A DNA stretch of 64,000 bases from an uncultured bacterium (GTDB lineage Bacteria > Patescibacteriota > Minisyncoccia > Moranbacterales > UBA2206), in NCBI GenBank assembly GCA_903937035.1, contig CAIZXS010000017.1, forward strand, positions 660 to 64,659, in the 5' to 3' direction. Both the position numbers and the translations under genes were made by a program. The notes under the pieces were generated by a model. It was not told where the DNA came from and ran no database searches. It saw only the letters and a program-made list of their open reading frames with translations. This document shows positions 12,691 through 60,197 of this stretch, one piece after another. The stretch's first letter is position 1; every line of letters starts with the position of its first letter.

Positions 12691-13917
12691 ATGAGTCCAA
12701 AGAGTGTTCTCATTGGAATATCTGGTGGCGTTGATTCTTCTGTTTCTGCTGCGCTACTCAAGGACAAAGGCTATGCTGTCAGCGGAGCCTTTTTGCGTTT
12801 TTGGGAGCCCAAAGGGGCTGATAATAAATCTCTGGCGGATGCAAAAGCTGTTTGTCGTATTTTGGGTATCCCCTTGGAAATCATTGAAGCAAGAGGGGCA
12901 TTTGAGAAAACAGTCATTCAATATTTTCTTCGTGAATATGAGGGAGGCAGAACTCCTAATCCCTGCGTTTTTTGTAATGAAAAAATGAAGTTTAAATTAC
13001 TCTTCGAAACGGCTCAAAAATTAGGAATTGAAATGGTTGCCACTGGACATTATGCCCAGGTCCTGCCTACGTCGAGCCTTCCGCCTTCGTTAAAACTTCG
13101 GCAGGCAAGCATGAAACATGAAACATGTAGCATGAAACCTGCCTACGCCTCCTCCTGCGCTAACCTTCTACGTCAAAGTGGTGGTCAAGAAGCTACGGCG
13201 GATAGAGATGCTCCGGCAGGCAAGCATGGGACAGGCAATGCAGAACAGAAAATGTGTTATAAATTATTTCCCGCGAGTGATAAGAAAAAAGACCAATCAT
13301 ATTTTTTATACCGTTTAAAGCAAGAACAATTGGCGAAAATTATTTTTCCACTTGGCGGATATGAAAAAACTGAGGTGCGAAAATTGGCGGAAAAATTTCA
13401 GTTACCGGTTTTTGATAAAAGTGACTCGCAAGATGTGTGTTTTATGGCGAATGGGAATTTAGAGGGATTTTTAAAAAATAAGATTGTCTTGCAATTTGGG
13501 AAAATTGTTGATACTGGTGGGAATCTGATGGGAGAGCATCGCGGGCTTTCTCTCTATACGATCGGACAAAGAAAGGGGATTGAAATTGGCGGCACGGGAC
13601 CATACTTCGTTGTTTCCAAAAACGTGCAGGAAAATATTTTGGTGGTAACTAATGATATCAATCATCCATTAATAGCTCGAAAAAAAATTGAGTTGGATGA
13701 TGTGGTTTGGGCAAGCGCTTTGATGTCGAATTTTCCAGCCTCTGTTCGAGTGAGGACGCGCTATCATAATCCGCTAATACATGCTACAATAGGGAATATT
13801 AGTGATGGACATTGCCAGTTGGAATTTGATTTGGCGCAAAGAGCAATCGCGCCTGGGCAGTCAGTTGTTTTCTATGGAGAGAGCGAAGAGATCTTGGGTG
13901 GTGGAATAATAAAATAA
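12691..13917 (+). CDS. mnmA: tRNA-specific 2-thiouridylase MnmA carrying an in-frame ~180-nt insertion
   Basis: PP-loop SGGVDSS, ATGHY and KDQSYFLY present. About 59 extra residues separate ATGHY from KDQSYF compared with typical MnmA. Confidence 0.88.
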   Translation: MSPKSVLIGISGGVDSSVSAALLKDKGYAVSGAFLRFWEPKGADNKSLADAKAVCRILGIPLEIIEARGAFEKTVIQYFLREYEGGRTPNPCVFCNEKMKFKLLFETAQKLGIEMVATGHYAQVLPTSSLPPSLKLRQASMKHETCSMKPAYASSCANLLRQSGGQEATADRDAPAGKHGTGNAEQKMCYKLFPASDKKKDQSYFLYRLKQEQLAKIIFPLGGYEKTEVRKLAEKFQLPVFDKSDSQDVCFMANGNLEGFLKNKIVLQFGKIVDTGGNLMGEHRGLSLYTIGQRKGIEIGGTGPYFVVSKNVQENILVVTNDINHPLIARKKIELDDVVWASALMSNFPASVRVRTRYHNPLIHATIGNISDGHCQLEFDLAQRAIAPGQSVVFYGESEEILGGGIIK

Positions 13918-13931
13918 TTTTTTTCAAATTT

Positions 13932-14234
13932 ATGTACATGCAAAATTCTTCGAGAGGTGGTAATGCTGATGATGAGAATAGTGCCGATGTTGCTGCGAAG
14001 GAGAGTCAAAAGAGGCGAGTTCAGATGGAGCTATTAATTTTGGATTCAGATAAGCGAAAATTGGCGAATGAAAAAAGTGTCTTGGAGGCGGAGATTCGAA
14101 AATTAAGGCAAGATGGAGAGCGGATTACTCTAATTACGAATAGTAAAAAAGCGCGTTACGATGTTGTCGTGAGAGAGTCTTCGGAAAAAGAGGAGGAATT
14201 GAAGCGACTTAAAAAGAAATTAAATACACTATAA
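13932..14234 (+). CDS. Small coiled-coil protein, hypothetical
   Basis: 100 aa, charged heptad-like sequence. Confidence 0.4.
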   Translation: MYMQNSSRGGNADDENSADVAAKESQKRRVQMELLILDSDKRKLANEKSVLEAEIRKLRQDGERITLITNSKKARYDVVVRESSEKEEELKRLKKKLNTL

Positions 14235-14252
14235 TTATTAAAAATAAAAAAG

Positions 14253-14513
14253 ATGCTTGAATCAAAATTGAAAGATCTCGCCTTGGAAATTTTGGGCGAC
14301 AAAATTACGGATGAGGAGGAGAAAGTCAAAATCTCTGAAGAGTTGCGCTTGCTTGAGCGCGAGCTTAATGACGATATTTCGCGAGTTTTGCGTGAACTGA
14401 GGAGAGATTTGGACGCGAATGCGCTTAGAAATAAATTTAGTTCTGATGATAGAGATGATATTGTCAAAAAAGTCGGGGAAAACATCAAGCGGTCAGAGTA
14501 CGCAGGAGTTTAA
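14253..14513 (+). CDS. Small coiled-coil protein, hypothetical
   Basis: 86 aa, E/K/R-rich. Confidence 0.4.
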   Translation: MLESKLKDLALEILGDKITDEEEKVKISEELRLLERELNDDISRVLRELRRDLDANALRNKFSSDDRDDIVKKVGENIKRSEYAGV

Positions 14514-14548
14514 TGTTTGCAAGCATAAGTACTAAAAAATGAAAAAAT

Positions 14549-16471
14549 ATGTCAAACGAAAATAATTATTCTGAGGAAATAATCTCCAGCCTCAATGTGA
14601 TTAACAGCGCTATCTCAGATTTGAATCAAAAGATAGAGTTGCAAAATGAAAGAATTTTACGCCTAGAAGGTGTCCAGGAAAAAGTGGCAATTGTTCCGCC
14701 GACCTATGTCGCTCCACCAGCGCCAGCTCCAGTTTCTGTTTCTCAGCCGACCTACCAAAATATTGAATCACAACCGACTTTTCAACCTACCCCTAATCAG
14801 AATTTGCCAGTATCTGAAAAATCCAATCTAGAAGAGAATATTGGTGGTAAGTGGTTTGCGAGAATTGGAATGGCTGCGCTTGTTCTTGGGGTATCTTTTT
14901 TTCTTAAATATGCCTTTGATAATAATTGGATTGGAGAGGCTGGTCGGGTGATGATTGGAATTATTGCCGGAATAGCCTTGCTTGGTCTTGGGGAAAAATT
15001 TATTCGGAAATATTTTGTTTATGGTCAACTTATAAGTGGCGGTGGATTGGCCGTGCTGTATCTTTCTATTTTTGTCGCCTTTGATTCATATCATCTAATT
15101 AGTCAAATCCCGGCTTTTTTGATAATGACACTTATCACGGCTGTTGGAATAGTTTTGAGTATTAGATATGATGCTATTTCACTTGTGATTGTTTCGACTC
15201 TTGGTGGTTTTTTAACACCTTTTCTTGTTTCGACAGGAGAAAATAATGAAGTTGAATTATTTTCCTATATTTTAATCCTGGATTTGGCGATTCTCGCGAT
15301 CTCAATGTTTAAAAAATGGAGATGGTTGAATATCTTGGGTTTTTTTGGCACGGTTCTCGTTTTTCTTTCCTGGTCAGGTAGGTTTTACAATGAAGATGAG
15401 CTGTTTGTGACCATGCTATTTTTGACACTATTTTTTATAACCTATTCTATTTCTTCCTTGGTTTATAATCTTGTCAGAAACGAGAAATCTTCCGGAGTGG
15501 AGCAAACGCTTACGTTAATGGCTGGAGTGATATTCTTTGCTTCAAGCTATGCAATGCTTAACCCTAGCTACCATGTGTTTATGGGTTTTTTTGCTTTGAT
15601 TATGGCAATTTATTATTTTCTTTGGGCTTATCTGGTGCGTGCTATCACTCCAGATGATGAAAATTTGTATAGTTTCCTGGCTTTTTTAACGGTTGGTTTT
15701 ATTACTTTGGCGATTCCTTTGCAATTTGAAGGAAAAATAATTTCGATCGGATGGGCGATTGAAGCGGTGATTATGATTATCTTGGGGATTAAGACAGAAA
15801 AGGTTGCTTTCAAGGCATTTGGAACTTTTATGTTTGGATTGGCTACGATGCGCTTGCTTTTCGTTGATTCAGAGCATGGCAATAAGGATATGGTGCTTTT
15901 AAATGAAGTAATGTTTACCTATTTCATTGTAATCATCTTGGCCTATGCATCGGCATATATTTTTCGATTATTTTCCAGTGATACTGAAGAGAAAAATGAT
16001 TTCTTGGCCACAAAACAATTGATTGCACTATTTTTGATTGCAGCTAATTTCTTGACTGTTTTTTCGCTTAGTCGTGAGATAACCTATAAATATGATCAGG
16101 ACAAGCGTGCCTACCAGTTGCAGGAAGAAAAAAGGTATACTGAAAATGTTAGGACAGGCAAGACTCAAGATAGTTCATATATGTATGAAAAACTTGATAA
16201 GATTGACAGTAAGAGCAGTGTCTCTCTTTCTTTGTTTTGGCTTTTTTATGGAATAATTCTCGTGGTGGTTGGTTTTCTCGCTCGCATCAAAGGTGTGCGG
16301 ATTGGAGGACTCTTGCTTTTCACCTTGGCTATTCTTAAACTATTTTTCTATGATCTTTGGAGCATGGGAACGCTTTATCGCATCATATCTTCGATGAGCT
16401 TGGGTGTGGTACTTCTCACAATTTCATTTGCTTATCAGAAATATAAAGATAAGATTAAAGAAATAATCTAA
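14549..16471 (+). CDS. DUF2339-like multi-pass membrane protein
   Basis: N-terminal coiled-coil, a Pro-rich linker, then about 15 TM helices. Confidence 0.6.
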   Translation: MSNENNYSEEIISSLNVINSAISDLNQKIELQNERILRLEGVQEKVAIVPPTYVAPPAPAPVSVSQPTYQNIESQPTFQPTPNQNLPVSEKSNLEENIGGKWFARIGMAALVLGVSFFLKYAFDNNWIGEAGRVMIGIIAGIALLGLGEKFIRKYFVYGQLISGGGLAVLYLSIFVAFDSYHLISQIPAFLIMTLITAVGIVLSIRYDAISLVIVSTLGGFLTPFLVSTGENNEVELFSYILILDLAILAISMFKKWRWLNILGFFGTVLVFLSWSGRFYNEDELFVTMLFLTLFFITYSISSLVYNLVRNEKSSGVEQTLTLMAGVIFFASSYAMLNPSYHVFMGFFALIMAIYYFLWAYLVRAITPDDENLYSFLAFLTVGFITLAIPLQFEGKIISIGWAIEAVIMIILGIKTEKVAFKAFGTFMFGLATMRLLFVDSEHGNKDMVLLNEVMFTYFIVIILAYASAYIFRLFSSDTEEKNDFLATKQLIALFLIAANFLTVFSLSREITYKYDQDKRAYQLQEEKRYTENVRTGKTQDSSYMYEKLDKIDSKSSVSLSLFWLFYGIILVVVGFLARIKGVRIGGLLLFTLAILKLFFYDLWSMGTLYRIISSMSLGVVLLTISFAYQKYKDKIKEII

Positions 16472-16476
16472 ATAAA

Positions 16477-17730
16477 ATGAAAAAACTATTTATTATATTT
16501 GTAGCAATTTTTCTTTTTTCTGCAACTAGCTGCTTAGCAAATTTTGATATCTCCAAATGGAAATATTATAAAGATATTTCAAGCACCGGAGGAAATCTTT
16601 TGAGAGTAACCTTGGATGATAATGTCTTTTCCAGCTCTACGAAAGATTTATCTGATTTAAGAATTATTGATGGGGAAAATAGAGAAGTGCCATTTAAGCT
16701 TGTTTCAGGCAAAGAAAGTTTCAAAAGCGATCGCGTGCCTGTCAAAATGATTAATAACTCCTATATTCCAGGAGAAAATTCTCAGGTTATTTTGGACCTG
16801 GGAACTTCTGGTAGCCTAGTGAATAATCTGACGGTCAGTACGGTCAGCGAAAATTTTCAAAGAAACGTGAAGGTTTATGGCAGTAATGACATGAGCGCTT
16901 GGAATGTGCTTCGAGATAATGGGTATTTTTATGATTTCACTGACAAGAAGGCTAATTTTAAATCGCAAAACACACAAATTTCATTTCCTGACAGCGCCTA
17001 TCATTATATTAAAATTGAAATCGCAGATGATGGTGGAAAGCCTGTTAAAATCATTTCCGTAGAAACGAACAATACTATCGAAGAAAAAACTCGCGGACAT
17101 GAAAGGCATCCTCAGTTTAAATCAATTGAAAAAACGGATAAAAAAATAACTGAGATGGTTGCTGATTTAGGAGTGAGTGGAATCCCGACTGATAGAATGA
17201 ATATTGAATCAAAAAATGTAAATTTCAATAGAGCAATTTTGATTTACGCGAGCAATGATGAAAATGCAAAGGATTGGGATTATCTTGGCCAAGGCTATGT
17301 TTTTCGCTACAACACTCCAAAATTTACCGGAGAAAATGTCACATTGAGTTTTCCCGAGACCACGAAGCGTTATTTAAAGCTGGAGATAAACAATAAAGAT
17401 GATGTGCCGCTTTCTATTTCCGGACTTAGCTCTTTCTCTGTTTATCGTGAAGTAATTTTTCAGACGAATGTTTCGGAAAAATATCGGCTGTTTTATGGTA
17501 ACGCAAAAGCGGATTATCCTCAATATGACTTGGAAAAATATTTTGAGTATCTTGAGCCTGACAAGGCAATGGAGGCGAAAATAACCAACCAAAGAGATAA
17601 TCCTAGCTATATAGCGGAAAAAGAGCCCGAAAAGCCTTTGACCGAAAGAATTCCCTATCTGCTTTCTGGTATTTTGACACTAACCTCACTATTTTTAATT
17701 TTTCTTGTCTTTAAATTTTTGAAAAAATAA
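16477..17730 (+). CDS. Secreted protein with signal peptide and C-terminal TM anchor (DUF3999-like by context)
   Basis: Signal peptide MKKLFIIFVAIFLFSATSCLA and a C-terminal hydrophobic helix; immediately follows the DUF2339-like gene. The DUF assignment is inference. Confidence 0.5.
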   Translation: MKKLFIIFVAIFLFSATSCLANFDISKWKYYKDISSTGGNLLRVTLDDNVFSSSTKDLSDLRIIDGENREVPFKLVSGKESFKSDRVPVKMINNSYIPGENSQVILDLGTSGSLVNNLTVSTVSENFQRNVKVYGSNDMSAWNVLRDNGYFYDFTDKKANFKSQNTQISFPDSAYHYIKIEIADDGGKPVKIISVETNNTIEEKTRGHERHPQFKSIEKTDKKITEMVADLGVSGIPTDRMNIESKNVNFNRAILIYASNDENAKDWDYLGQGYVFRYNTPKFTGENVTLSFPETTKRYLKLEINNKDDVPLSISGLSSFSVYREVIFQTNVSEKYRLFYGNAKADYPQYDLEKYFEYLEPDKAMEAKITNQRDNPSYIAEKEPEKPLTERIPYLLSGILTLTSLFLIFLVFKFLKK

Positions 17731-17799
17731 TTCAGACCCCGGTTTGACTGCCTGTTTAAAGCATTATACAATTCAATGTAGATTGAATTTAAATTTGTA

Positions 17800-19662
17800 A
17801 TGTCAAAAATTATGTTAACTGCGAAAGAACTGCGCCAAAAATATCTCGATTTTTTCAAGAGCAAGGAGCACGCCATTATTCCTTCTGCGCCATTGGTGCC
17901 GGAAAATGATCCGACGACACTTTTCACTGGTTCCGGGATGCAGCCAATGATCACATATCTCATGGGAGAAAGTCATCCTCTTGGGAAGCGCATTGCTGAC
18001 AGTCAAAAGAGTTTCCGTTCAGGCGACATTGAGGATGTGGGCGACAATCGTCACACGACATTTTTTGAGATGCTTGGTAATTGGTCGCTGGGAGATTATT
18101 TCAAAAAGGATCAGATTACTTGGATGTTTGAGTTTCTTACAAAAGAGATTGGGCTCGATCAGAAGAATTTGTATGTGACAGTTTTCCGTGGTGATGAAAG
18201 TCTTAATATCCCACGTGATGACGAGTCAGTTGGAATTTGGAAAGAATTATTCAAGGGTGTCGGAATCGAAGCACAGGATGTCAATTTTGCCGAACGTGAT
18301 GGAATGCAAGATGGCAGAATTTTCTATTATCCAGTGGAAAAAAACTGGTGGAGTCGGGCAGGCGTGCCGGCTAATATGCCGATTGGTGAACCGGGCGGAC
18401 CGGACAGTGAAATGTTTTGGGATTTTGGAGTAGAGCGAGGGATTCATGAAGAATCAGCTTGGAAGGATGAGCCCTGCCATGTCAATTGCGATTGTGGGAG
18501 ATTTATGGAAATCGGCAATAATGTGTTTATGGAATATCTCAAGACCGAGAAAGGCTTTGAGTTTTTGAAACAAAAAAATGTTGACTTTGGTGGTGGGCTA
18601 GAAAGAATTCTTGCGGCATTGAACAATGACCCAGATATTTTTCTCACGGATATTTTTGAGAAAGCTAAGGCAGAAATTGAAAAATTGTCTGGCAAAAAAT
18701 ATGCGGACAACAAAGAAGCATATCGAGTTATTTTAGATCACTTGCGTGCAGCGACATTTCTTATTGGCGACGGTGTTTTGCCAAGCAATAAAGATCAGGG
18801 CTACTTTGTCCGGCGGCTTATCCGCCGCGCAGTGCGCTTCGCACATAAATTAGGAATTGAGAATAATTTCTGCGGAGATGTGGCGAAGATTTTTATTGAG
18901 GATTATAAAAGTGAATATGCTAATCTTGAAACAGATCAAGAAATGATTGTTGCGGAACTAGGAAAGGAAGAAAATAAATTTAGAGAGACACTGGAAAAGG
19001 GCCTTAAAGAATTTGAGAAGTATATACAGATAGATGGAAAGGTTATTTTCAATCTTTATACAACCTATGGGTTTCCCAAAGAATTGATTGCGGAAGAAGC
19101 AAAAGAACGTGGAGTAGAAGTTACAACAGAAAATTGGCAAGAATTTGAAGAACTATTTAAAAAGCATCAAGACCTTTCCCGTACTGCAGCCGAAGGAAAA
19201 TTCAAAGGAGGACTGGCTGATTATAGTGAAAAAACAACTCAGTTTCACACGATTGCTCATCTGATGCTTGCAGGACTGCGAAAAGTTTTAGGAGAAAATG
19301 TTCATCAAAAAGGCTCAAACATCAATGGCGAACGAATTCGTTTTGATTTTTCGCATCCGGACAAAATGACCGATGAACAGAAAAAAGCCGTAGAGGAGTT
19401 TGTGAATGAGGCAATTGAATCCAAGACAGAAGTGGCAATGGAAGAAATGACGCCGGAAGAAGCCAAAAATGCCGGCGCAGAAGGCGAGTTTGGGCATAAA
19501 TATGGCGATCGAGTGAAAGTCTATTCCGTCGGAGAGTATTCCCGCGAAATCTGTGGTGGACCGCACATCAAAAATACAGCTGAAATTCAAGGCAAATTTA
19601 GAATCCAAAAAGAAGAAAGTTCTTCGGCGGGAGTGCGCCGGATTAAGGCGGTGGTGGAATAG
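17800..19662 (+). CDS. alaS: Alanyl-tRNA synthetase, compact form (catalytic, tRNA-recognition and editing domains, no C-Ala)
   Basis: N-terminus ELRQKYLDFFKSKEHAIIPSAPLVPENDPTTLFTGSGMQP; editing motifs HTIAHLM and CGGPH. Confidence 0.85.
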   Translation: MSKIMLTAKELRQKYLDFFKSKEHAIIPSAPLVPENDPTTLFTGSGMQPMITYLMGESHPLGKRIADSQKSFRSGDIEDVGDNRHTTFFEMLGNWSLGDYFKKDQITWMFEFLTKEIGLDQKNLYVTVFRGDESLNIPRDDESVGIWKELFKGVGIEAQDVNFAERDGMQDGRIFYYPVEKNWWSRAGVPANMPIGEPGGPDSEMFWDFGVERGIHEESAWKDEPCHVNCDCGRFMEIGNNVFMEYLKTEKGFEFLKQKNVDFGGGLERILAALNNDPDIFLTDIFEKAKAEIEKLSGKKYADNKEAYRVILDHLRAATFLIGDGVLPSNKDQGYFVRRLIRRAVRFAHKLGIENNFCGDVAKIFIEDYKSEYANLETDQEMIVAELGKEENKFRETLEKGLKEFEKYIQIDGKVIFNLYTTYGFPKELIAEEAKERGVEVTTENWQEFEELFKKHQDLSRTAAEGKFKGGLADYSEKTTQFHTIAHLMLAGLRKVLGENVHQKGSNINGERIRFDFSHPDKMTDEQKKAVEEFVNEAIESKTEVAMEEMTPEEAKNAGAEGEFGHKYGDRVKVYSVGEYSREICGGPHIKNTAEIQGKFRIQKEESSSAGVRRIKAVVE

Positions 19663-19716
19663 AAACAGTGGACAGTAATCAGTGAGCAGGAGTCAGTAAG
19701 GGTGCAGGATGCCTTA

Positions 19717-19744
19717 TTGACAAAGTATTGCGATATGCTAATAT
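19717..19744 (+). promoter_or_regulatory. Candidate sigma-70 promoter (TTGACA-16-TAATAT) inside the alaS 3' spacer
   Basis: Consensus hexamers. Together with the terminator at 19909-19933 they delimit a ~170-nt unit. Confidence 0.3.
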
Positions 19745-19908
19745 TTTGGTATAAATAACACCTCAAGTTTTATGAGTCTAAATCGTCAAGTCAAAACTAA
19801 TAATTGGTCTTCATGCTCCGGATCCGGGTCCCGACTTTTTGTTGGCGAATTTTGGCTTGAAGCGAAGAGGAGAATAGTGCAATAAATTATCCTTCGAAAT
19901 AAACCAAA

Positions 19909-19933: not shown

Positions 19934-19982
19934 TTTTGTTCTTTGATTTTTTTAATGAATCTTAAGCATAGGAGGTAGCAAA

Positions 19983-29301: not shown

Positions 29302-30333
29302 ATGTTGAAAACGAAAATAGAAGAGATTAAAAAGCAGGTTTTGGAGGAAATTACGAAAGTCGGTAATAGTGACGCGCTTTTTGATTTGGAGAAAAAATAT
29401 TTGGGACGAAAAAGCGAGTTTGTGGGGTTTTTGAAAAATCTGAAAAACCTGGCACCGGAAGAACGAAAACAAATTGGCGAACTAGCCAATAAAACTAAGC
29501 TAGAAATCCTCGACATTATCAATGGAAAAAAAGCTGATTTGTCCAAAACCGGATCAAACGCAGAAAAAGAAAAAATTGACGTGACTATCTCCGGCAAGAA
29601 ACGTGGTGTGGGACACCTCAATCCGATTTCCATAGTACGCCGTGACATCGAAGATATTTTCACTGGCATGGGATTTGAAATTGCCGATGGACCGGAAATT
29701 GAAACTGAGTTCTATAATTTTGATGCATTGAATATGCCAGCTGATCATCCGGCACGTGACATTCAAGACACTTTTTGGTTGAAAAATAAAAAAGGCAAAG
29801 AAAGCCTAGCAATGCGTTCTCAGACCTCAGCCGTGCAAGCGAAGTATATGGAAAAGCACAAACCACCCTTGCGGATAATTGTTCCAGGGAAGTGTTTTCG
29901 TCGAGAAGCAACTGACACGACACACGATCATACATTTTATCAGTTTGAGGCATTGGTGGTGGGGGAAAATATTAATGTTGGACACCTGAAGCAAGTAGCA
30001 GAAGACTTTTTTTCACAATTTTTTGGGCAGGAAATAAAAGTACGTTTGCGACCGAGCTATTTTCCTTTCACGGAACCCAGCTTTGAATTTGATATTTCTT
30101 GCACTGTTTGTGGTGGGAAAGGATGCCGAGCTTGCAAATATAATAAATGGCTGGAACTTGGTGGCGCCGGAATGGTTAACCAAAATGTTTTTGAAGCGGT
30201 CGGCTATAAACGCAATCAATACACTGGCTTTGCTTGGGGCTTTGGATTGGAACGTCTCGCAATGATGAAATATAAGATTGATGATTGCCGGCTTTTTCAC
30301 TCGGGGGATTTGCGGTTTATTAGGCAATTTTAG
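29302..30333 (+). CDS. pheS: Phenylalanyl-tRNA synthetase alpha subunit
   Basis: Class II motifs FRLRPSYFPFTEPSFEFDI and GFAWGFGLERLAM. Confidence 0.92.
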   Translation: MLKTKIEEIKKQVLEEITKVGNSDALFDLEKKYLGRKSEFVGFLKNLKNLAPEERKQIGELANKTKLEILDIINGKKADLSKTGSNAEKEKIDVTISGKKRGVGHLNPISIVRRDIEDIFTGMGFEIADGPEIETEFYNFDALNMPADHPARDIQDTFWLKNKKGKESLAMRSQTSAVQAKYMEKHKPPLRIIVPGKCFRREATDTTHDHTFYQFEALVVGENINVGHLKQVAEDFFSQFFGQEIKVRLRPSYFPFTEPSFEFDISCTVCGGKGCRACKYNKWLELGGAGMVNQNVFEAVGYKRNQYTGFAWGFGLERLAMMKYKIDDCRLFHSGDLRFIRQF

Positions 30334-30349
30334 TGATCTCTACGAATTA

Positions 30350-30379
30350 CCTGCCTACTCTGCCTACCGGCAGGCGAAT
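30350..30379. repeat. GC-rich palindromic motif CCTGCCTAC-TCTGCCTACCGGCAGGCGAAT in the pheS-pheT spacer
   Basis: Same CTGCCTAC/GGCAGGC unit as in mnmA, the pseudo-tRNA-Tyr D-loop and repeat R6. Confidence 0.7.
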
Positions 30380-30411
30380 TAATACGAATGTGCGAATGAT
30401 TTTTTAATAAT

Positions 30412-44866: not shown

Positions 44867-45014
44867 TGTATTGCCGAAGTAGCGGAGTGGCAGAGCAACA
44901 GTTTGGTAAATAGTTGCGCTATCAAGGTTTGAAAACAAAATGTATTGCCGAAGTAGCGGAGTGGCAGAGCAACAGTTTGGTAAATAGTTGCGCTATCAAG
45001 GTTTGAAAACAAAA
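44867..45014 (+). repeat. Tandem direct repeat, 2 x 74 bp, each a degenerate copy of the 5' ~50 nt of tRNA-Thr(UGU) plus its leader
   Basis: The unit TGTATTGCCGAAGTAGCGGAGTGGCAGAGCAACAGTTTGGTAAATAGTTGCGCTATCAAGGTTTGAAAACAAAA occurs twice; a third copy runs into the real tRNA. Confidence 0.85.
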
Positions 45015-45020
45015 TGTATT

Positions 45021-45092
45021 GCCGAAGTAGCTCAATGGCAGAGCAACTGTTTTGTAAACAGTAGGTTATCGGTTCAACTCCGATCTTCGGCT
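45021..45092 (+). tRNA. tRNA-Thr (anticodon TGT)
   Basis: Acceptor GCCGAAG/CTTCGGC; anticodon loop TTTGTAA; T-loop TTCAACT; CCA not encoded. Confidence 0.85.
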
Positions 45093-45119
45093 CAAAAAAA
45101 TGAAAATAAAGGAAATAGT

Positions 45120-45203
45120 GGGTCTGTGGCGGAGCAGTCCCTGCCTACCGGCAGGCAGGAATCTCAGCTGAATGTAAATCAGCCGATCTCGTATCTACGC
45201 AGG
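45120..45203 (+). pseudogene. tRNA-Tyr pseudocopy: 5' two-thirds retained with a palindrome inserted in the D-loop; T-arm and acceptor 3' strand missing
   Basis: GGGTCTGTGGCGGAG...AATCTCAGCTGAATGTAAATCAGCCGATCTCGTATCTACGCAGG aligns to the intact tRNA-Tyr; CCTGCCTACCGGCAGGCAGG inserted at 45139-45159. Confidence 0.75.
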
Positions 45204-45257
45204 CGCGTCCCTCACCAATTTTGAACAATTAAAATATTTAGGGTAGAAGAAGCACAT

Positions 45258-45341
45258 GGGTCGGTGGCGGAGTGGTCAATCGCAGCTGACTGTAAATCAG
45301 CCGATCTCGTATCTACGCAGGTTCGAACCCTGCCCGGCCCA
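45258..45341 (+). tRNA. tRNA-Tyr (anticodon GTA), type II with long variable arm
   Basis: Acceptor GGGTCGG/CCGGCCC (one T.G pair); anticodon loop CTGTAAA; T-arm GCAGG-TTCGAAC-CCTGC. Confidence 0.85.
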
Positions 45342-45403
45342 CAAGGATACCCTAGTTCGAAATTGGTGAGGGATGAAAACCCTGCCCGGCCCATATCATT
45401 CAT

Positions 45404-45687: not shown

Positions 45688-45761
45688 GGTTTAGAGCAAA
45701 GTTCTCCGTCCTTGCGAACGATAGCGGGCTTGCCCGCCGAAGTCCGCTGTGGCGGACGCAG

Positions 45762-51296: not shown

Positions 51297-51358
51297 AAAC
51301 CAGCCCAGAAAAAGTTACCTACCGGCTAAAAAAGAATTGGCTCACCCCAAATTCAAGT

Positions 51359-53687: not shown

Positions 53688-53745
53688 GAGTACATAGAAA
53701 AATAGTTTATTAATGTGAAAATGTATATAGCTAAATATTTAAAGA

Positions 53746-55104
53746 TTGAATCCAGATATTATGCGTAAAATTATAATTATTCTCATAATACTATTATTGA
53801 ATTTGAGTTTAATTTTACCAGCATTGGCCGAGGAAAAAATTTTTCCACAATCGGATTTTTTTCTCTATCTGGGAATTAGAAATGCGGCAGCTGGAATAGG
53901 TCCTGGTAAAATTGAAAAGATTTTATTTAGTTCGTCTCATGTAGACATGCGGGCTGGTAAAATAACTGCTGATCGGAATATTCCAATTAATTTTACACAA
54001 GGAGTTGAGGATGTCAGTGGCAATGCTCACTTAAGAATGGATGGGGATTATGACAAGAGTGATGGCAGGCTCTCTGGTTATTTTTCTATTGTCTCCAATG
54101 TGAAAGTTGTCTGGCACGGGGCTTTTGACAGCAATACGGATTGGGTGGAAACGATTAACGGATCGTTTAGTGGCCAGGTTGTCGATGAAAAGGTGATTAT
54201 ACGCTACAATGGAAAATCCAGCACAGAATCACATGAAGGAATGGCAGACGGCAAAGTAAGGAATAGATCTGAAGTCAATGACTATACTTCAGTTGTTGCT
54301 TGGCGTATGAATGACTACAAAGCACCAGAAGTACCAGTAGTGTCAGAAATTGATAAGGAATTTTTAGACAAAGACGGAAAGCCAGTTGATTCGCGGGCAC
54401 GCTTTGGATCACGAGATGGGCAGGTGGAAATTCATATTCCAGGTGAGCCGGAGGACGTATGGCACATTGCTACTCCAATAACAGTCATACCATATGGCGC
54501 TAGAATCAAGACAGATGACGATAGCGAGGCGATTATTTCCTTTCCTGATCATACGATATTTAAAATGAAACCAGAATCGACGATAATAATATCTAAGCCA
54601 CCAACAGATAATGATAGTAAATGGAAATTAGTAGCCGGAAATATTTGGGTTAATGTAAAAAAAGTGTTGAAAGATGGAACTATGGAGATTGATGTAAATC
54701 AGGCAGTGGCTGGAAAGAAGGGCACGACATTTGTTGCCTCGCAAATAGGAGACAACTCAGTATTCAAGGTTATTGAAGGCGAGATGTTTATCAAGGCCAA
54801 AAATAGTGACGAAACTGCCGATATTGTTGGTGGTCAACAAGCGACGATTGATAGCACTGGTAGGATAGTAAAAGAAAACTTTGATATTATTGCCGAGCAA
54901 GATACTTGGGATAAATCGGAAAAAGTTGATTTTGCAATGTTGGAAAAAGCCTTGCCGGCAGAAAGCACAGCGGAATTAGTGATTCAAGGTTCTCGTGATG
55001 ATAAACCTAAAAATAAAAACATTTTCTATATAATTGGCGGGTTGATTTTGATTGGCGGAATTTTTGTAGGTTTTTTTAAAAGAAAAAAAGTAAATATAAG
55101 TTAA
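53746..55104 (+). CDS. Secreted/anchored FecR-domain protein (signal peptide and C-terminal TM)
   Basis: FecR-like beta-rich segment ISFPDHTIFKMKPESTIII...VAGNIWVNVKK...AVAGKKGTTFVASQ...VIEGEMFI. Confidence 0.6.
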   Translation: MNPDIMRKIIIILIILLLNLSLILPALAEEKIFPQSDFFLYLGIRNAAAGIGPGKIEKILFSSSHVDMRAGKITADRNIPINFTQGVEDVSGNAHLRMDGDYDKSDGRLSGYFSIVSNVKVVWHGAFDSNTDWVETINGSFSGQVVDEKVIIRYNGKSSTESHEGMADGKVRNRSEVNDYTSVVAWRMNDYKAPEVPVVSEIDKEFLDKDGKPVDSRARFGSRDGQVEIHIPGEPEDVWHIATPITVIPYGARIKTDDDSEAIISFPDHTIFKMKPESTIIISKPPTDNDSKWKLVAGNIWVNVKKVLKDGTMEIDVNQAVAGKKGTTFVASQIGDNSVFKVIEGEMFIKAKNSDETADIVGGQQATIDSTGRIVKENFDIIAEQDTWDKSEKVDFAMLEKALPAESTAELVIQGSRDDKPKNKNIFYIIGGLILIGGIFVGFFKRKKVNIS

Positions 55105-55201
55105 TTAACCAAATCTACCATCGTAGCAGAAAGGCTTGGAATATAAACATCTTGGCTATTTTCTTGAAATAAATTTTTAACGTCCCTTATTATCCCGTGC
55201 A
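55105..55201 (+). repeat. Island repeat R4: TAATTAACCAAAT box at the stop codon plus degenerate tRNA-Trp copy (55138-55201)
   Basis: GGAATATAAACAT...TTTTTAACGTCCCTTATTATCCCGTGCA. Confidence 0.75.
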
Positions 55202-55253
55202 GATTAGAAAATTCAAAAATTCAAAAGCCAGCTGATACGAGGATGGTTTTTTG

Positions 55254-55262
55254 TGGTATAAT
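55254..55262 (+). promoter_or_regulatory. Extended -10 element TGGTATAAT
   Basis: 44 nt upstream of the ATG at 55306. Confidence 0.4.
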
Positions 55263-55305
55263 GAAATAGTAAAAATTCTTTTTTAAAAAGTAAAATAGAA
55301 AAATA

Positions 55306-56805
55306 ATGAAAAATAAGACATCGATAGTTGCCGCTCTTTTTTTAGCGGTAATGATTTTTATGGGCCTGAAAATTGATATGGCACGGGCAGGCGATCCTTT
55401 TGCTGCTTCTTTCGTAACTCCTCCAACTCCAGTAGACCTCTCTACTATTGATGGCACATCTGCAGAAATATCAGTTTCAACGAACAAGTCCGCTCAACAC
55501 TATGTTTTGAATAATTTTGATAATTCACTGATTGGCTGGTGGAGAGGGGAAGGTGACGCATTGGATGCTTCAGGGAATGGAAATGATGGGACGTTAATCG
55601 GGGGCGCGACTTATGCCACCGGAAAGTTTGGGCAAGCTTTCAGTTTGGATGGCGAGGATGACTATATTGATATGGAAAGTTCTTCAAGTTTGAATTTGCA
55701 ACATAGCTTTACAATGTCTGCTTGGGTTAAAACCGATACTATTTTTATAGGGACTCAAAGAATTCTTGGAAGAGTAGGGGCGCCCATTGGCGAAGACTTA
55801 GGTGGTGATGGATATGGCTGGGGGATAGTGGGGAATCAACTTAGATTTACAACATTTAACAAGCAGGATTACGACAGTACACTTGCAGATATCAATCCTG
55901 ATACGTGGTATCACTTGGCGATTGTTTTCGATTCAAATAATGCTGTTAGTTTCTATGTGGATGGCGAATATCTTGAAACTATTGCCGGATATGAGTCTGG
56001 GGATGATGTTTCGGAGGCAAATTTTACAATAGGTAATACTACATATTTCCAAGAACCGTGGAGTGGCTCTATTGACGATGTCGCTATTTTTGACAGAGTT
56101 TTATCGGAAGGCGAGATTAGTTCGCTATATAATGCTTTTGCAACTCAATACGATAACACTTTTACTGGTTTGGCTCGTGGTGAGCACACAACTCAAGCGC
56201 ACGCCGTTGATTTAGATGGAAATAAAGCTTCAACTGAAGAAAGGACGTTTACTGTTGGAGAGGAATCCGAAGCTGTCGAAGAAGAAGCGCAAAAAGCCCA
56301 CATTGATTCCTGGGAGTATTCTTTATTTACTGACCAAAGTTCATGTCCAGAAAAACTAAAACTTGAAATCAAGGGCAAACATTTCAAAGCGAATGCTAAA
56401 GTTAAGATTGGTAACAAAAAAGCCGCAGTGGTAGACAAAAAATCCAGCAAAAAACTAGTTGCCAGTTTTTGTATCGACAAGCTTCTTGATAATAAGCCAG
56501 GAACAAAACGCACAGTGAGTGTCAAAAATCCTGATACTGACACCGAAAAAGCGGACAAAAAGATTGATCTTTCTGTCCTCACCGGATTCAGTAATAACAA
56601 TATTCCACAAGGCAATTCTGAATGGGTCAAAAACATTCAAAGCGCTCTAGTGAAGCTGGGTTATCTTGATAGCCAATATGTAACCGGAGTTTATGGACCA
56701 ATCACTACCAAAGCTGTCAAAAAATTTCAAGCAGACAATGGCATAGAACAAACAGGTACGGTGGGACCGATCACGAAAGCTAAGCTCGTAGAGAAGGTGA
56801 AATAG
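55306..56805 (+). CDS. Secreted LamG/concanavalin-A-like lectin domain protein with C-terminal peptidoglycan-binding domain
   Basis: Signal peptide; LamG-type motifs FTMSAWVKTD...WYHLAIVFD...FYVDGEY...GSIDDVAIFDRVLSEGEI; PG_binding_1-like VKNIQSALVKLGYL...GVYGPITTKAVKKFQADNGIEQTG. Confidence 0.75.
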   Translation: MKNKTSIVAALFLAVMIFMGLKIDMARAGDPFAASFVTPPTPVDLSTIDGTSAEISVSTNKSAQHYVLNNFDNSLIGWWRGEGDALDASGNGNDGTLIGGATYATGKFGQAFSLDGEDDYIDMESSSSLNLQHSFTMSAWVKTDTIFIGTQRILGRVGAPIGEDLGGDGYGWGIVGNQLRFTTFNKQDYDSTLADINPDTWYHLAIVFDSNNAVSFYVDGEYLETIAGYESGDDVSEANFTIGNTTYFQEPWSGSIDDVAIFDRVLSEGEISSLYNAFATQYDNTFTGLARGEHTTQAHAVDLDGNKASTEERTFTVGEESEAVEEEAQKAHIDSWEYSLFTDQSSCPEKLKLEIKGKHFKANAKVKIGNKKAAVVDKKSSKKLVASFCIDKLLDNKPGTKRTVSVKNPDTDTEKADKKIDLSVLTGFSNNNIPQGNSEWVKNIQSALVKLGYLDSQYVTGVYGPITTKAVKKFQADNGIEQTGTVGPITKAKLVEKVK

Positions 56806-56925
56806 GACTAATTAACCAAATTCACCGCTGTGGGAAAGAGATCTGGAATATAAACATGCTTCTTTTTGTTCGTCTTAGCTACCCGTGCAATCAAAAAACA
56901 AGGCTTATATAGAGCCTTATTTGAG
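56806..56925 (+). repeat. Island repeat R5: TAATTAACCAAAT box, shortened tRNA-Trp-like copy (56845-56889), hairpin (56900-56918)
   Basis: GGAATATAAACAT...CTTAGCTACCCGTGCA. Confidence 0.7.
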
Positions 56926-56980
56926 TGTCAGCGGTATTGACAAAATAGTAAATGAAGTATATGCTAATTAGTTAATGATA

Positions 56981-57008
56981 GGTCTTTGACAATTTACGAA
57001 GAAATGCA
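56981..57008 (+). promoter_or_regulatory. Shared 26-28-nt box GGTCTTTGACAATTTAYGARAAATG upstream of histidine-kinase gene 1 (second copy at 60712-60737)
   Basis: Near-identical sequence containing TTGACA precedes both hybrid kinase genes. Confidence 0.5.
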
Positions 57009-57317
57009 AGTAAAAAGGAGGTGAGAAGCTTGAAGGTTGATTTTATTCGGTTGTTTCTGAGACTTTGTTGTCTGGGATTCATCTTGGGCAGATTCAAAAA
57101 AAGAGAATTAAGGAATGGGCGGGAACGAGGTTTCGTGACCGCGGTTTGTCCTCGGCCAGCAGGCCGCTGGATCATGGGAAATGATTTTCTTTATGAATCT
57201 GAACGGGCCATCTCGAAAGAAATTAAAAAAGGAGACTGGGTTGTCTACTTTGGTTATCGTTCGTCTTCTGGATGGAAGGCGAGGTTGGTTGCAAAAATAT
57301 TTTGAAAGGAGGAAGTT

Positions 57318-60077
57318 ATGAACAAGAAAGAGATGCTTGGAAATATTGAAGCACGGTTTGCGTTTAGTATTCAGATGAGAGAAAGTCAGGAGAGATGCAG
57401 TGCAATTTTTGACCAGTCTCCGATAGCGATAGAGTTTTACGATGCCGCTGGCGGTTTGGTTGCAGTAAATAGGGCCTGTCTTGATTTGTTCGGTGTGGTG
57501 AATGAGGCCGAGGTCCTTGGATTCAAGATGTTTGAAGACCCTAACATTACTGATGAGGTAAAAACAAGACTGTTGAATAAGGAAATAGTAAGGTTTGCGG
57601 TTGACTTCAGCTTTGATAAAGTGAAACAACTGAAGCTTTATGAAACCACCCATTCAGGGATAAAGACACTGGATTGGTGTATTTCACCGCTCATAGAAGA
57701 AAGTTTGTTAATAGGGTATGTTATGCACATACAGGATATCACCGAACGTAAGCTGGCAGAGGAAGCAGTTCGAAAAAGCGAAGAAAACTATCGACTTATC
57801 GCCGACAATACCGGTGACGTTATTACGGTACTGAATATGGACTTGCAATTCACCTATATCAGTCCGTCAGTTTTTCAGCTGAGCGGATTTACGGTTGAAG
57901 AAGTTTTAAATAAGTCCGTTGATCAGATAGTAACAGCCGGTTCATTGTCGGTATTTGTTAAGAATTTCGAAGAGGAGCTGGTATTGGAAGCTTCTGGAAA
58001 TGCGAACCCTCAAAGAATTCGTACAATTGAAGTGGAGGAGTATCGAAAAGACGGTTCCTTATTCTGGATGGAGATAAATTTGTCATTCATACGCAATCAG
58101 GAAGGGATGCCCTTGGGGGTAATTGCAGTTATCCGTGATGTTTCTAGCCGCAAGAAAACAGAAATAGCATTACATAGGAGTGAAGAAATGTATCGGTTGA
58201 TAGCCGATAATATGGCTGATGTCATCTCAATCATAGATTTGAATTTAAGGTTCACGTATGTCAGTCCTTCTATTTCTCGCCTTTACGGAATTCCAGCTGA
58301 AGAGCTGATGAATCAGCCTATTGATAAACTAATAACTCCTAAATCCATGAAGCATGTGCTATCAATTTTCGAGAAAGAAATAGCATTGGAGGCGCTAGGA
58401 ACGGCAGATCCTCAAAGGATCACCACGTTGGAGTTAGAGCATTATTGGAAAGATGCTACCCCTTTGTTTTGGATGGAAGTCAGTTCGTCCTTTTTACGTG
58501 ACCAGGACAAGAAAGTTATGGGAATGATTGCGGTGAGCCGTGACATCACAGAGCGCAAGCAGACGGATGAAACTCTGCTGAAAGAGCGCGAACGTCTCAA
58601 GGGTGTCATAGAAGGTACTAATGTCGGGATCTGGGAATGGAATGTCCAGACCGGGGAAGTAGTTTTTAATGATCGTTGGGCTGAAATCATTGGGTACAGC
58701 TTGGATGAAATTTCTCCAGTATCGATTGAGACTTGGACGAAATACGCTCATCCTGACGATGTGGAGAGCAGTGGTGCGTTGCTTGAAAAGCATTTCCGTG
58801 GCGAGATTGGCTATTATGAGTTCGATTCTCGTATGAAACATAAAGACGGAAATTGGATCTGGGTTCTGGATAGAGGAAAGGTGGCATCCTGGACAGAAGA
58901 TGGGAAGCCACTGATGATGATGGGGACGCATCAAGACATCACTGAACGCAAAAGGATGCGAAAGGCATTGATTGAGGCGGAACGCCTTAGCGCCATTGGA
59001 GAGCTTTCATCGGGCGTGGCGCATGACTTCAATAATGCCCTGGAGGTGATAAATGGAAATTTGGAAATGGCATTGTTTGTTCCAAATATTCCTCAGGAAG
59101 TCACAGAGTTGATCAAGCGTTCCAGAAAAAGTGCGAATGATGCGGCAGCTCGTATTCGACAACTGCAACGTTTCACGAAAAAAGAGCAGCATAGCGAATA
59201 TCAACCGCTTGATCTCAATGTGGTTCTGGATGAAGCAATTCTTCAGACCAGACCGCTCTGGAAGGATATGGCGGAAAAAAAGGGACTGCAAATTTCTTTC
59301 CAAAGAACCCATGGAAAGATAAGACATGTCGATGGAGACTTGGGAGAGATCGGTAGTGCTTTCCATAATCTCATCAAAAATGCTATTGAAGCTATGCCTA
59401 TTGGCGGTGTGATTAATATTGAAACAGGAATGATTGGTGAAAAAGTCTTTGTCAGGATTGGAGATGCCGGGATAGGGATGGATGATGAAATTAAAAAAAG
59501 AATTTTTCAACCATTTTTTTCAACCAAAGGGCTCGAGCCAGGACGAGGACTCGGAATGAGTGCCGTTGCCTCTATTGTCAGCGATCATGGCGGAGTGGTT
59601 TATGTCAAAGAAACGATTGTCGGAAAAGGCACAACGATTGAAATGTTGCTTCCCGTTGGAACGTTAAGAGCGATAGAGGTAAAAATCATCGAACCGAGTG
59701 TTCAAAAAGACCTTATCCGCGTGCTCTGGGTGGATGATGAAGAAGCCATTAGGACATTGGGACGGATGTATATGGAAAAATTAGGTTATTTTTCCGACAT
59801 AGCCAATGGAGGACTGGAAGCGCTAGAGCTCTTGCGGAATAATCATTATGATCTGGTCATCAGTGACATTGGAATGCCAGGGATGGATGGCTGGCAGTTA
59901 GCGGAGGCGATAAAAAATACGCACCCTGAAGTGAAGGTTGTGATTGTCTCTGGCTGGGGATCAGAGGCTGGCACTGATAAGAAGATCAGATATGGCGTCA
60001 GTCATATCTTAGGAAAGCCCACAAGCATGAATAAACTAAAAGAGATGATTGGAGCGGTGTTTCAATCAAAAATGTAA
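57318..60077 (+). CDS. Hybrid sensor histidine kinase (multiple PAS, HisKA, HATPase_c, C-terminal receiver)
   Basis: HisKA H-box LSSGVAHDFNNAL; ATPase G-boxes; receiver VLWVDDEEAI...DLVISDIGMPGMDG. RBS GGAGG before the ATG. Confidence 0.88.
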   Translation: MNKKEMLGNIEARFAFSIQMRESQERCSAIFDQSPIAIEFYDAAGGLVAVNRACLDLFGVVNEAEVLGFKMFEDPNITDEVKTRLLNKEIVRFAVDFSFDKVKQLKLYETTHSGIKTLDWCISPLIEESLLIGYVMHIQDITERKLAEEAVRKSEENYRLIADNTGDVITVLNMDLQFTYISPSVFQLSGFTVEEVLNKSVDQIVTAGSLSVFVKNFEEELVLEASGNANPQRIRTIEVEEYRKDGSLFWMEINLSFIRNQEGMPLGVIAVIRDVSSRKKTEIALHRSEEMYRLIADNMADVISIIDLNLRFTYVSPSISRLYGIPAEELMNQPIDKLITPKSMKHVLSIFEKEIALEALGTADPQRITTLELEHYWKDATPLFWMEVSSSFLRDQDKKVMGMIAVSRDITERKQTDETLLKERERLKGVIEGTNVGIWEWNVQTGEVVFNDRWAEIIGYSLDEISPVSIETWTKYAHPDDVESSGALLEKHFRGEIGYYEFDSRMKHKDGNWIWVLDRGKVASWTEDGKPLMMMGTHQDITERKRMRKALIEAERLSAIGELSSGVAHDFNNALEVINGNLEMALFVPNIPQEVTELIKRSRKSANDAAARIRQLQRFTKKEQHSEYQPLDLNVVLDEAILQTRPLWKDMAEKKGLQISFQRTHGKIRHVDGDLGEIGSAFHNLIKNAIEAMPIGGVINIETGMIGEKVFVRIGDAGIGMDDEIKKRIFQPFFSTKGLEPGRGLGMSAVASIVSDHGGVVYVKETIVGKGTTIEMLLPVGTLRAIEVKIIEPSVQKDLIRVLWVDDEEAIRTLGRMYMEKLGYFSDIANGGLEALELLRNNHYDLVISDIGMPGMDGWQLAEAIKNTHPEVKVVIVSGWGSEAGTDKKIRYGVSHILGKPTSMNKLKEMIGAVFQSKM

Positions 60078-60092
60078 CTGTTTTTCAAACAC

Positions 60093-60124
60093 CCTGGTGT
60101 CATAATTGATGCCAGGGTTTTTTA
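60093..60124 (+). terminator. Rho-independent terminator
   Basis: CCCTGG...CCAGGG hairpin followed by T7. Confidence 0.7.
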
Positions 60125-60158
60125 TTCGCGAATAATGATGAGAGGGGGCGTTTTTCTA

Positions 60159-60197
60159 TATAAAAATAGTTCTAACCTGCCTACTGGCAGACAGGCG
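60159..60197 (+). repeat. Island repeat R6 (partial): tRNA-Trp-like ATAAAAATAGTTCTAAC fused to the palindromic motif CCTGCCTACTGGCAGACAGGCG
   Basis: The two repeat families are joined at one site. Confidence 0.7.

Follow-up and report, generated by a model that had tools for sequence, protein, structure and literature searches.

A 20-nt GC-rich hairpin identical across bacterial phyla and linked to small GIY-YIG nuclease genes and tRNA decoys

We analyzed a 64,000-nt stretch of DNA from an uncultured Moranbacterales bacterium (GenBank assembly GCA_903937035.1, contig CAIZXS010000017.1; hereafter the window) in which a short GC-rich palindrome recurs. We refer to this palindrome as H, and its minimal form is the 20-mer CCTGCCTACCGGCAGGCAGG. 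H is identical across phyla, and it is tightly linked to a family of small GIY-YIG nucleases and to tRNA decoys, that is, partial tRNA copies that carry the hairpin. Our favored explanation, which we hold with moderate confidence, is that H acts in cis as the hairpin of a selfish element that spreads horizontally and is organized around a single-domain GIY-YIG nuclease of ~80 aa. At a tRNA gene, the full element would consist, in this order, of the tRNA promoter, a decoy 5′ tRNA copy with H in its D-loop, the open reading frame (ORF) of the nuclease, and the intact tRNA. The stretch read here would hold non-autonomous derivatives of such an element: at tRNA-Tyr a decoy module without the ORF, and elsewhere hairpin copies, solo or extended, in mnmA, between pheS and pheT, and at 60176.

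Copies of the hairpin in the window

The core sequence CTGCCTAC starts at positions 13063, 13139, 30351, 30360, 45141, and 60177 of the window, on the + strand in every case. These six occurrences compare with a mean of 0.59 in dinucleotide-preserving shuffles, none of which (0/100) reached six, and GGCAGGC was found 10 times against 3.83 expected. The 20-mer is exact at 45140–45159 and has two mismatches at 60176–60195, where chance would provide none. A first-pass annotation of this DNA had judged the palindrome too frequent for chance, which these counts bear out. It had also placed the palindrome at five loci of an AT-rich genome; the recurrence was confirmed, but direct reading gave five copies at four loci, and the window, at ~40% G+C, is not strongly AT-rich. 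The copies vary in length (20, 25, 48, and ~88 nt), and their density is low, at five per 80 kb (window plus 16 kb of flank). No T-run lies 3′ of any of the five copies and two of them are coding, so they do not have the form of intrinsic terminators. At gathering thresholds, Rfam models matched four tRNAs in the window and nothing else. Further candidates were rejected: the weaker trace proposed earlier at 51321–51330 is a mere 9-mer (CCTACCGGC) at chance level, and the one-mismatch candidates at 16106 and 27164 look like chance.

Two long copies lie within mnmA, an essential gene of tRNA modification. Copy 1 (13063–13110, + strand) has the form CTGCCTAC-G-(28 nt)-C-GGCAGGC-AAGC, and its 48 nt make an in-frame insertion of 16 codons that is translated as LPTSSLPPSLKLRQAS; copy 2 (13138–13225, + strand) has the form CCTGCCTACG-(~67 nt)-CGGCAGGCAAGC. 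Between them stands the heptamer array (CATGAAA)x4 (13110–13138, + strand; period 7 and 4.1 copies in Tandem Repeats Finder). The long copies have common ends, CCTGCCTACG on the left and CGGCAGGCAAGC(ATG) on the right, and the right end CTYCGGCAGGCAAGCATG is common to both. The closest orthologue (L006; L numbers are our labels for the loci compared) lacks both segments. Its DNA reads ...GGATC/ATGAAACAT/AGAACAAGC/AATGCAG, whereas the window has 48 extra nt before ATGAAACAT and 108 after it, the latter (13120–13227; 36 codons, in frame) including long copy 2. The two segments add 156 nt in all (52 codons) and keep the frame; this empty-site comparison revealed no target duplication.

At the protein level, MnmA of the window has 408 aa and its closest orthologue (P0002) has 349 aa, being without ~52 residues between ATGHYA.. 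and ..NAEQKMCYKLF. Fifteen contigs encode the identical insert-bearing MnmA, and those listed include several independent samples. In other Moranbacteria orthologues, the same MnmA loop carries different palindrome-derived peptides (CLPAGR, CLPDRQA, and MKHEACSMKQEA), and in the mnmA loop of L007 a doubled hairpin sits between TTTCCAA heptamers. The AlphaFold model of MnmA was poor (mean pLDDT 58.5), with low values for residues 114–226 and the lowest confidence over the insert. The insert is probably disordered, which the model backs weakly because it is poor as a whole.

In the pheS-pheT spacer, with ORF ends at 30333 and 30412, one copy with a doubled left half (CCTGCCTAC TCTGCCTAC CGGCAGG; 30350–30374, + strand) is bracketed by abutting 7-nt direct repeats, CGAATTA, at 30343–30349 and 30375–30381. 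The degenerate solo copy CCTGCCTACTGGCAGACAGG (60176–60195, + strand) lies 3′ of a PAS kinase gene and its terminator, among the first 20 codons of a predicted 132-aa ORF.

At the tRNA-Tyr locus, a 5′ pseudo-copy of the tRNA (45120–45203, + strand) covers tRNA positions 1 to ~64 with five substitutions when aligned by eye to the intact tRNA-Tyr, and the minimal 20-nt hairpin (45140–45159, + strand) sits after position 20, in the D-loop. As single-stranded DNA (ssDNA), the hairpin folds with −6.1 kcal/mol. The sequence around it reads GTC/hairpin/AATC, compared with GTCAATC in the intact tRNA-Tyr, so that no target duplication is seen. A 54-nt spacer follows the pseudo-copy and leads to the intact tRNA-Tyr (45258–45342); no ORF is present in the remainder of the rearranged locus (45204–45394, + strand). 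The relative L221 (GCA_049303595.1, ~92% nucleotide identity) has a plain Thr-Tyr-Thr cluster, with neither pseudo-copy nor hairpin. The pseudo-tRNA-Tyr shares its anatomy with the decoy tRNAs that precede GIY-YIG ORFs (described below), and decoy-plus-hairpin units without an ORF also stand beside tRNAs in L143, L159, and L184, in the same arrangement. The segment 45120–45203 is a decoy-plus-hairpin module minus its ORF, and the remaining window copies are solo or extended.

The intact tRNA-Tyr is itself flanked by ~35-nt inverted repeats (45208–45243 and 45345–45376; TCCCTCACCAATTT...TAGGGTA) that are unique to this locus, and the 3′ end of the tRNA is duplicated as ACCCTGCCCGGCCCA at 45380–45394. 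The intact tRNA-Tyr lies in a cassette, bounded by these repeats, that splits an older tRNA-Tyr at the T-loop; the 5′ part of the older gene carries the hairpin, and its 3′ part is ACCCTGCCCGGCCCA.

On sequence comparison, the window copies of H are insertions, because L006 lacks the mnmA segments and L221 lacks the tRNA-Tyr pseudo-copy with its hairpin; the earlier idea of a mini-element that inserts is upheld in this respect. A reverse case was also found downstream of alaS, where a degenerate heptamer array, (NNNCAGT)x5, is present both in the window (19663–19700) and in L007 (17210–17280). The L007 array holds an H-like copy (CCTACC-13 nt-CGGCAGGCAAGC), and the window has the array alone. 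The right end CGGCAGGCAAGC of this H-like copy is lineage-specific. All window copies and the L007 copy carry a diagnostic A (TAC), and the perfect palindrome prevails beside nuclease genes; this common variant argues for propagation inside the lineage from one variant.

Occurrence across phyla and linkage to nuclease genes

We scanned one genome per species for the pattern CCTGCCTAC-N(0–14)-GGCAGGCAGG, which gave at least 120 loci. Among the matches listed, to which the percentages for H copies and sites below also refer, at least 111 were exact copies of the 20-mer from more than 10 phyla, against a chance expectation of ~1. Among the listed hosts were Bacteroidota (cultured Olivibacter and Flavobacteriaceae included), Ignavibacteria, Nitrospirae, Chloroflexi, Planctomycetota, Omnitrophota, Deltaproteobacteria-type lineages, Acidobacteria, and many lineages of the Candidate Phyla Radiation (CPR), and 12 stretches of viral contigs also carried the 20-mer. 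The flanks of H are unrelated from genome to genome. A tRNA lies within 600 nt of 15% of the listed copies, compared with 5% of in-locus controls; the majority are thus solo.

Small GIY-YIG genes were the recurrent partner. When ORFs of 90 aa or more lying up to 2.5 kb from the hairpin were clustered for 120 genome and 12 viral loci, no recurrent neighbor family emerged; the top groups were kinases, ABC ATPases, and dehydrogenases, all of housekeeping type. The GIY-YIG ORFs fell short of this length threshold. A targeted phmmer search detected small GIY-YIG ORFs at 6 of the 120 hairpin loci, all of them less than 100 nt from the 20-mer, encoding proteins of 77–96 aa with PF01541 as the sole domain. 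At all six loci, the ORF adjoins an intact tRNA gene and has on its opposite side a partial copy of the same tRNA, with the hairpin in the D-, anticodon-, or T-loop of that copy.

We then examined an independent test set of 80 metagenomic loci selected by protein similarity alone. H was present at 37 of them with up to three mismatches, whereas the estimated chance in 178 kb is <0.01. It was mostly the perfect palindrome CCTGCCTGCCGGCAGGCAGG, usually 30–80 nt upstream of the start codon. At 47 of the 80 loci, an intact tRNA on the same strand (Arg, Leu, Asn, Gly, Thr, Lys, or Phe) followed the ORF, starting ~0–90 nt and occasionally up to ~210 nt past it. The region 5′ of the ORF aligns to that tRNA from position 1, with a variable end that usually abuts the ORF, and the alignment commonly contains a 20-nt insertion after position ~20–22, with positions 8–15 and 39 also used; in the window, the insertion is after position 20. 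H stood on both sides of the nuclease gene at ~6 of the 80 loci (L143, L153, L159, L161, L162, and L184) and upstream alone in most. The first-pass annotation had guessed that the palindrome lands in tRNA-like sequence, and the association proved more specific than that: H is a regular D-loop component of decoy tRNAs beside small GIY-YIG genes.

The nuclease family comprises at least 7,940 matches, and members that are 65–77% identical are found in CPR and Bacteroidota alike. A complete module is present at tRNA-Leu(tag) in Moranbacteria GW2011_GWC2_37_73. The nearest solved structures to the family are UPF0213 proteins (1ywl and 1zg2) and SLX1. At some loci (L147, L155, L163, L177, L187, L205, and L208), the decoy tRNAs carry other GC-rich hairpins of 19–40 nt, such as CCTGCCTGCCGCAGGCAGG, CCCGCCTGCCGACGGCGGGCAGG, and CCAGCCTCGCCGGCTAGGCGGG. 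These often occupy the same D-loop position, and the family thus draws on a set of related hairpins. Another group within the small GIY-YIG family (L194–L196, L200, L207, L210, L211, L213, and L219) lacks both a tRNA and the CCTGCC hairpin; the inverted repeat CCCCGTTAGAGAT ... ATCTCTAACGGGG encloses its ORF, which places the gene itself in a hairpin loop.

With respect to landing sites, H favors hairpin loops, namely those of tRNAs, of other palindromes, and its own, and also heptamer arrays. It often lies in or beside the loop of other GC-rich palindromes (CCCTCTCC..GGAGAGGG, ATTCCCGC..GCGGGAAT, and GTCATCCTGAG..GGATC), and symmetric forms in which it is nested in its own loop (CCTGCCTAC/20-mer/CGGCAGGCAGG) occur at eight loci at least. 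Inverted repeats of at least 7 nt were found in the flanks of 18% of H sites and 3% of controls, and direct repeats in those of 18% and 4%, respectively. The self-match of the flanks at a lag of 7 was 0.317 versus 0.262, and it was strong at 7.5% of sites versus 0.05% of controls. The base at −1 was C in 57% of listed copies, and the base at +1 was C or T in 93%. H is mostly intergenic, with a real minority in long ORFs (26% in ORFs of at least 150 codons, compared with 79% of control positions). Although all copies in the window share the + strand, this represents four independent loci only; across genomes, H showed no strand bias relative to GC skew or coding strand, and 57 of the 111 listed copies were on the G-rich strand.

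A 42-nt compound variant, CCTTGCCTAC CCTGCCTACCGGACAGGCAGG CGGCAGGCAGG, is identical in a Moranbacteria metagenome-assembled genome (MAG; L007 10403–10444) and in a groundwater MAG labeled Bacteroidia (L033 6187–6228). The flanks of the two are unrelated, and each is bracketed by perfect 7-nt direct repeats (TTTCCAA in L007 and TGTTGAA in L033). The L033 bin, from the 0.1-μm filter fraction and with 39% G+C, may in fact be a CPR contig that was binned wrongly. No orthology to window sites was found for the other Moranbacteria hairpin loci, L069, L075, and L084.

Known systems, proposed mechanism, and alternatives

The closest known system is SsnA/NTS (SRM), with the repetitive extragenic palindromes (REP) and their REP-associated tyrosine transposases (RAYT) next. 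Ssn proteins are small GIY-YIG nucleases with a single domain; they bind hairpin repeats (NTS/SRM) in single-stranded form and cleave the DNA upstream of them, and ssn genes are bracketed by their hairpin repeats in many phyla (Chenal et al. 2025, PMC11893778); that paper makes no mention of tRNA or Bacteroidota. As in SsnA/NTS, a gene for a single-domain GIY-YIG protein of ~80–95 aa lies beside a 20–50-nt hairpin repeat, orphan hairpins far outnumber genes, one hairpin type occurs in several phyla, and the gene-plus-hairpin layout resembles an insertion sequence. Unlike in SsnA/NTS, the hairpin lies chiefly upstream of the gene within a decoy tRNA copy, the gene abuts an intact tRNA, and the sequence of H is unrelated. 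H copies also occur in frame in coding DNA, whereas 2% of NTS are genic. The placement of a gene beside its hairpin, as in Ssn, was seen at the level of the family (6/6 and 37/80 loci) and not in the ~80 kb around the window.

If the nuclease worked on H as SsnA does on NTS, it would recognize the single-stranded hairpin and nick the DNA close to it, for instance while DNA is replicated or taken up. Through repair or template switching, H would next be copied into further single-stranded hairpin loops. The resident tRNA copy would be disabled by this, and the host would depend on the tRNA supplied or preserved by the element. The same process would scatter solo copies, and coding copies would persist just where the frame is kept in a tolerant surface loop, as in MnmA. 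Beyond the associations described above, we infer this mode of spread from the likeness to SsnA.

Several observations weigh against the selfish-element explanation. Among the matches listed, 85% of copies have no tRNA within 600 nt and 95% of those of TAC type lack a nuclease gene within 8 kb, so that the link of H is to the nuclease family and not to each copy. No GIY-YIG gene was found in the window and 16 kb of extra flank (~80 kb); a nuclease acting in trans in this genome is a candidate, and all copies could be relics. The insertion signatures are mixed, with no duplication at tRNA-Tyr or mnmA and a 7-nt duplication at pheS-pheT. Neither of the long mnmA copies folds better than shuffled sequence. 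A permissive Rfam scan of the mnmA insert returned chance-level matches alone, with nothing tRNA-like in its cargo, and a blastn-short comparison of the internal cargo with all fetched loci gave a single meaningful match, the L007 copy downstream of alaS; the origin of the cargo is explained by neither. The SRM consensus (HGTCWY N0–2 YYVSBRH N0–5 WNVSBRG N0–2 RNCYNB) matched 0 of the 111 listed sites with 15 nt on either side and nothing in the window, and in the 80 nuclease loci it gave two matches versus one in shuffled sequence. The likeness to Ssn lies in the layout of gene and hairpin, the placement in the Ssn clade (CDD cd10448) and ssDNA cleavage being putative, and the nuclease activity, cleavage site, and transposition intermediate of this subfamily are likewise predicted by analogy.

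Some features of H also recall other repeats. Elhai and coworkers are said to have described, in 2008, short dispersed repeats (SDR; 21–27 nt) and arrays of short tandemly repeated repetitive (STRR) heptamers in heterocystous cyanobacteria, the SDRs being in Nostocaceae alone. SDRs reportedly consist of ~20-nt hairpin units with an insertion-like distribution, are nested in repeats, are near-identical in distant relatives, and are accompanied by tandem heptamers; we know of no partner enzyme for them. We liken H to SDRs by description, not by sequence, and unlike them it covers many phyla and has an identified partner gene family. The Rickettsia palindromic elements (RPEs), reportedly presented by Ogata and coworkers in 2000, are palindromic repeats of ~100–150 bp in frame in protein genes, said to be confined to Rickettsia. 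As with RPEs, a palindromic repeat lies in frame in a housekeeping gene here and is translated as an extra surface segment, in this case of MnmA; RPEs are not known to be part of a tRNA or nuclease module.

Phage T4 SegB is a free-standing GIY-YIG homing endonuclease in a tRNA gene cluster, and Seg enzymes have at least 200 aa and DNA-binding domains. Integrative elements that target tRNA genes use integrases, rebuild the tRNA, and duplicate its 3′ part. As in these systems, a GIY-YIG gene lies amid tRNA genes, and the functional tRNA is kept while a partial duplicate is left. Unlike in the integrative elements, the duplicate here is the 5′ part of the tRNA (or the whole gene), and it is marked by a universal hairpin.

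Among alternative explanations, a host-beneficial motif under selection, such as an RNA stem-loop for transcript stability or termination, a protein site, or a DNA-uptake or anti-uptake signal, survives best, and we still consider it unlikely. Within the leader of the nuclease mRNA, H occupies a constant position, DprA is encoded in the window, and CPR bacteria are thought to be dependent on DNA uptake. In addition, NTS hairpins modulate transformation in Neisseria (PMC11893778). However, such a motif would not account for the identity across phyla with unrelated flanks. The copies in a coding loop, in a pseudo-tRNA, and nested in other palindromes and in themselves do not fit it either, nor do the low density, the lack of a T-run after window copies, and the variation in presence and absence among close relatives.

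The first-pass annotation had pointed to a REP- or MITE-like element or a recombinase target. A miniature inverted-repeat transposable element (MITE) would have CCTGCCTRCC termini and a DDE transposase with a 7-bp staggered cut, and recurring rounds of insertion and excision would have left the heptamer arrays behind. This could explain the variable internal length, the heptamer periodicity of the flanks, and the abutting 7-nt repeats at pheS-pheT, L007, and L033; repeats of this kind (at least 6/7 matching) occur at 8 of the 111 listed sites (~7%) versus 0.46 expected, and no other length was enriched. Nevertheless, more than 90% of copies have no 7-nt repeat, no target-site duplication of any length is general among H copies, and the two clean empty-site comparisons (mnmA and tRNA-Tyr) showed none. 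Neighbor clustering associated no transposase with H, and termini of 10 nt with nothing between them are, to our knowledge, below any known transposase substrate. We therefore regard a MITE as quite improbable. A recombinase target fared no better, as no recombinase or transposase partner was found and the recurrent neighbors were housekeeping genes and the GIY-YIG nuclease.

We give little credence to a REP-type origin, in which the hairpin would be moved by a domesticated IS200/IS605-like tyrosine (HUH) transposase, a RAYT, encoded once per genome. GIY-YIG enzymes form no covalent intermediate, in contrast to RAYTs. H resembles the palindromes of REP/REPIN-RAYT systems (PMC3116915) in being short, GC-rich, mostly intergenic, non-autonomous, and presumably mobilized in trans by the product of a single small nuclease-type gene that acts on single-stranded hairpins. 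The CTAC/GTAG tetranucleotide in H, the insertion without duplication at two sites (tRNA-Tyr and mnmA), and the preference for hairpin or single-stranded contexts also agree with REP. On the other hand, GTAG lies in the loop and not 5′ of the stem, and the prevailing form beside nuclease genes is without GTAG. REP families are lineage-specific and vertically inherited, whereas the 20-mer is identical in more than 10 phyla. There is no doublet (REPIN), but nesting in loops instead. No HUH transposase was associated with H, the GIY-YIG gene being the sole recurrent neighbor; this comes from an indirect test, the ORF clustering at the 120 genome and 12 viral loci, in which no family recurred and which involved no Y1 profile run on whole genomes.

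Chance, composition, a conserved coding motif, or an assembly or adapter artifact can practically be dismissed: short G+C-rich words could be enriched locally and the two adjacent copies may be a duplication, but shuffled sequence gave 0.59 where six were observed, the two coding copies of the five lie in a non-conserved insertion, the identical mnmA insert recurs on 15 contigs, and cultured isolates as well as hundreds of independent assemblies carry the 20-mer, with flanks specific to each host.

The system fits the hairpin-plus-small-GIY-YIG kind, and what looks new is the identity of a 20-nt unit across phyla and the tRNA-decoy architecture. Full-text literature searches yielded no description of the 20-mer, its reverse complement, or the tRNA-decoy architecture, nothing on GIY-YIG proteins together with tRNA, Bacteroidetes, or homing, and no Ssn follow-ups. 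We put forward only tentatively the broader idea that H and the ~80-aa nuclease form a previously undescribed class of selfish elements that colonizes tRNA genes across most bacterial phyla. Such an element would insert between promoter and tRNA or bring its own tRNA copy, disable the resident copy through a universal hairpin in a tRNA loop so that the host comes to depend on the element, and seed 20-nt hairpins into single-stranded hairpin loops, heptamer arrays, and, in frame, essential genes. H would in that case rank with the smallest mobile DNA units known to be common to several phyla.

If H does belong to a selfish GIY-YIG element, one mechanism would cover identical short GC-rich palindromes in unrelated environmental bacteria, translated as odd peptides (PAYRQAG and CLPAGR), partial tRNA duplicates in many genomes, and thousands of tiny ‘GIY-YIG nuclease family protein’ genes adjoining tRNA genes. 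The 2025 Ssn discovery would thereby extend to another class of hairpins, one that occupies a defined niche in genomes. The assay would be cheap, with the nuclease and a 20-nt hairpin oligonucleotide, and more sequence-specific ssDNA nucleases would become available for technology. For annotation, the hairpin flags decoy tRNAs and inserted, probably disordered, protein segments in CPR genomes.

Other features around the tRNA genes and the window start

Directly 5′ of the intact tRNA-Thr(tgt) (45021–45093), two tandem 74-nt units occupy 44867–45020 (period 74, 2.6 copies, and 95% matches in Tandem Repeats Finder). Each consists of a tRNA-Thr 5′ pseudo-copy, with a 6-nt leader and positions 1 to ~43 with substitutions, followed by a 26-nt spacer. 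These units are missing from L221 and have neither hairpin nor ORF. Just 5′ of tRNA-Trp, at 45716–45760, there are two small GC-rich hairpins, GCGGGCTTGCCCGC and GTCCGCTGTGGCGGAC, and the L221 sequence differs there.

In L221, tRNA-Trp is followed by a Band_7 gene and an Lnb_N gene inside ~2 kb. The window has ~18 kb in this place, from ~45.9 to 64 kb (to ~64.2 kb in L226), with genes for a GT4 glycosyltransferase with a PHP domain, a sigma-70 factor, two Fic proteins, a FecR-like protein, PAS sensor kinases, and phosphoribosyl pyrophosphate (PRPP) synthase. This ~18-kb segment beside tRNA-Trp is an island or a replacement.

Just left of the window, parA and parB are encoded (L224 6373–8313; ~3–4 kb 5′ of the window start). 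GC skew is positive across the window, and nearly all genes are on the + strand. Given the position of parA and parB, the positive skew, and the strand bias of the genes, the window start is probably near the replication origin.

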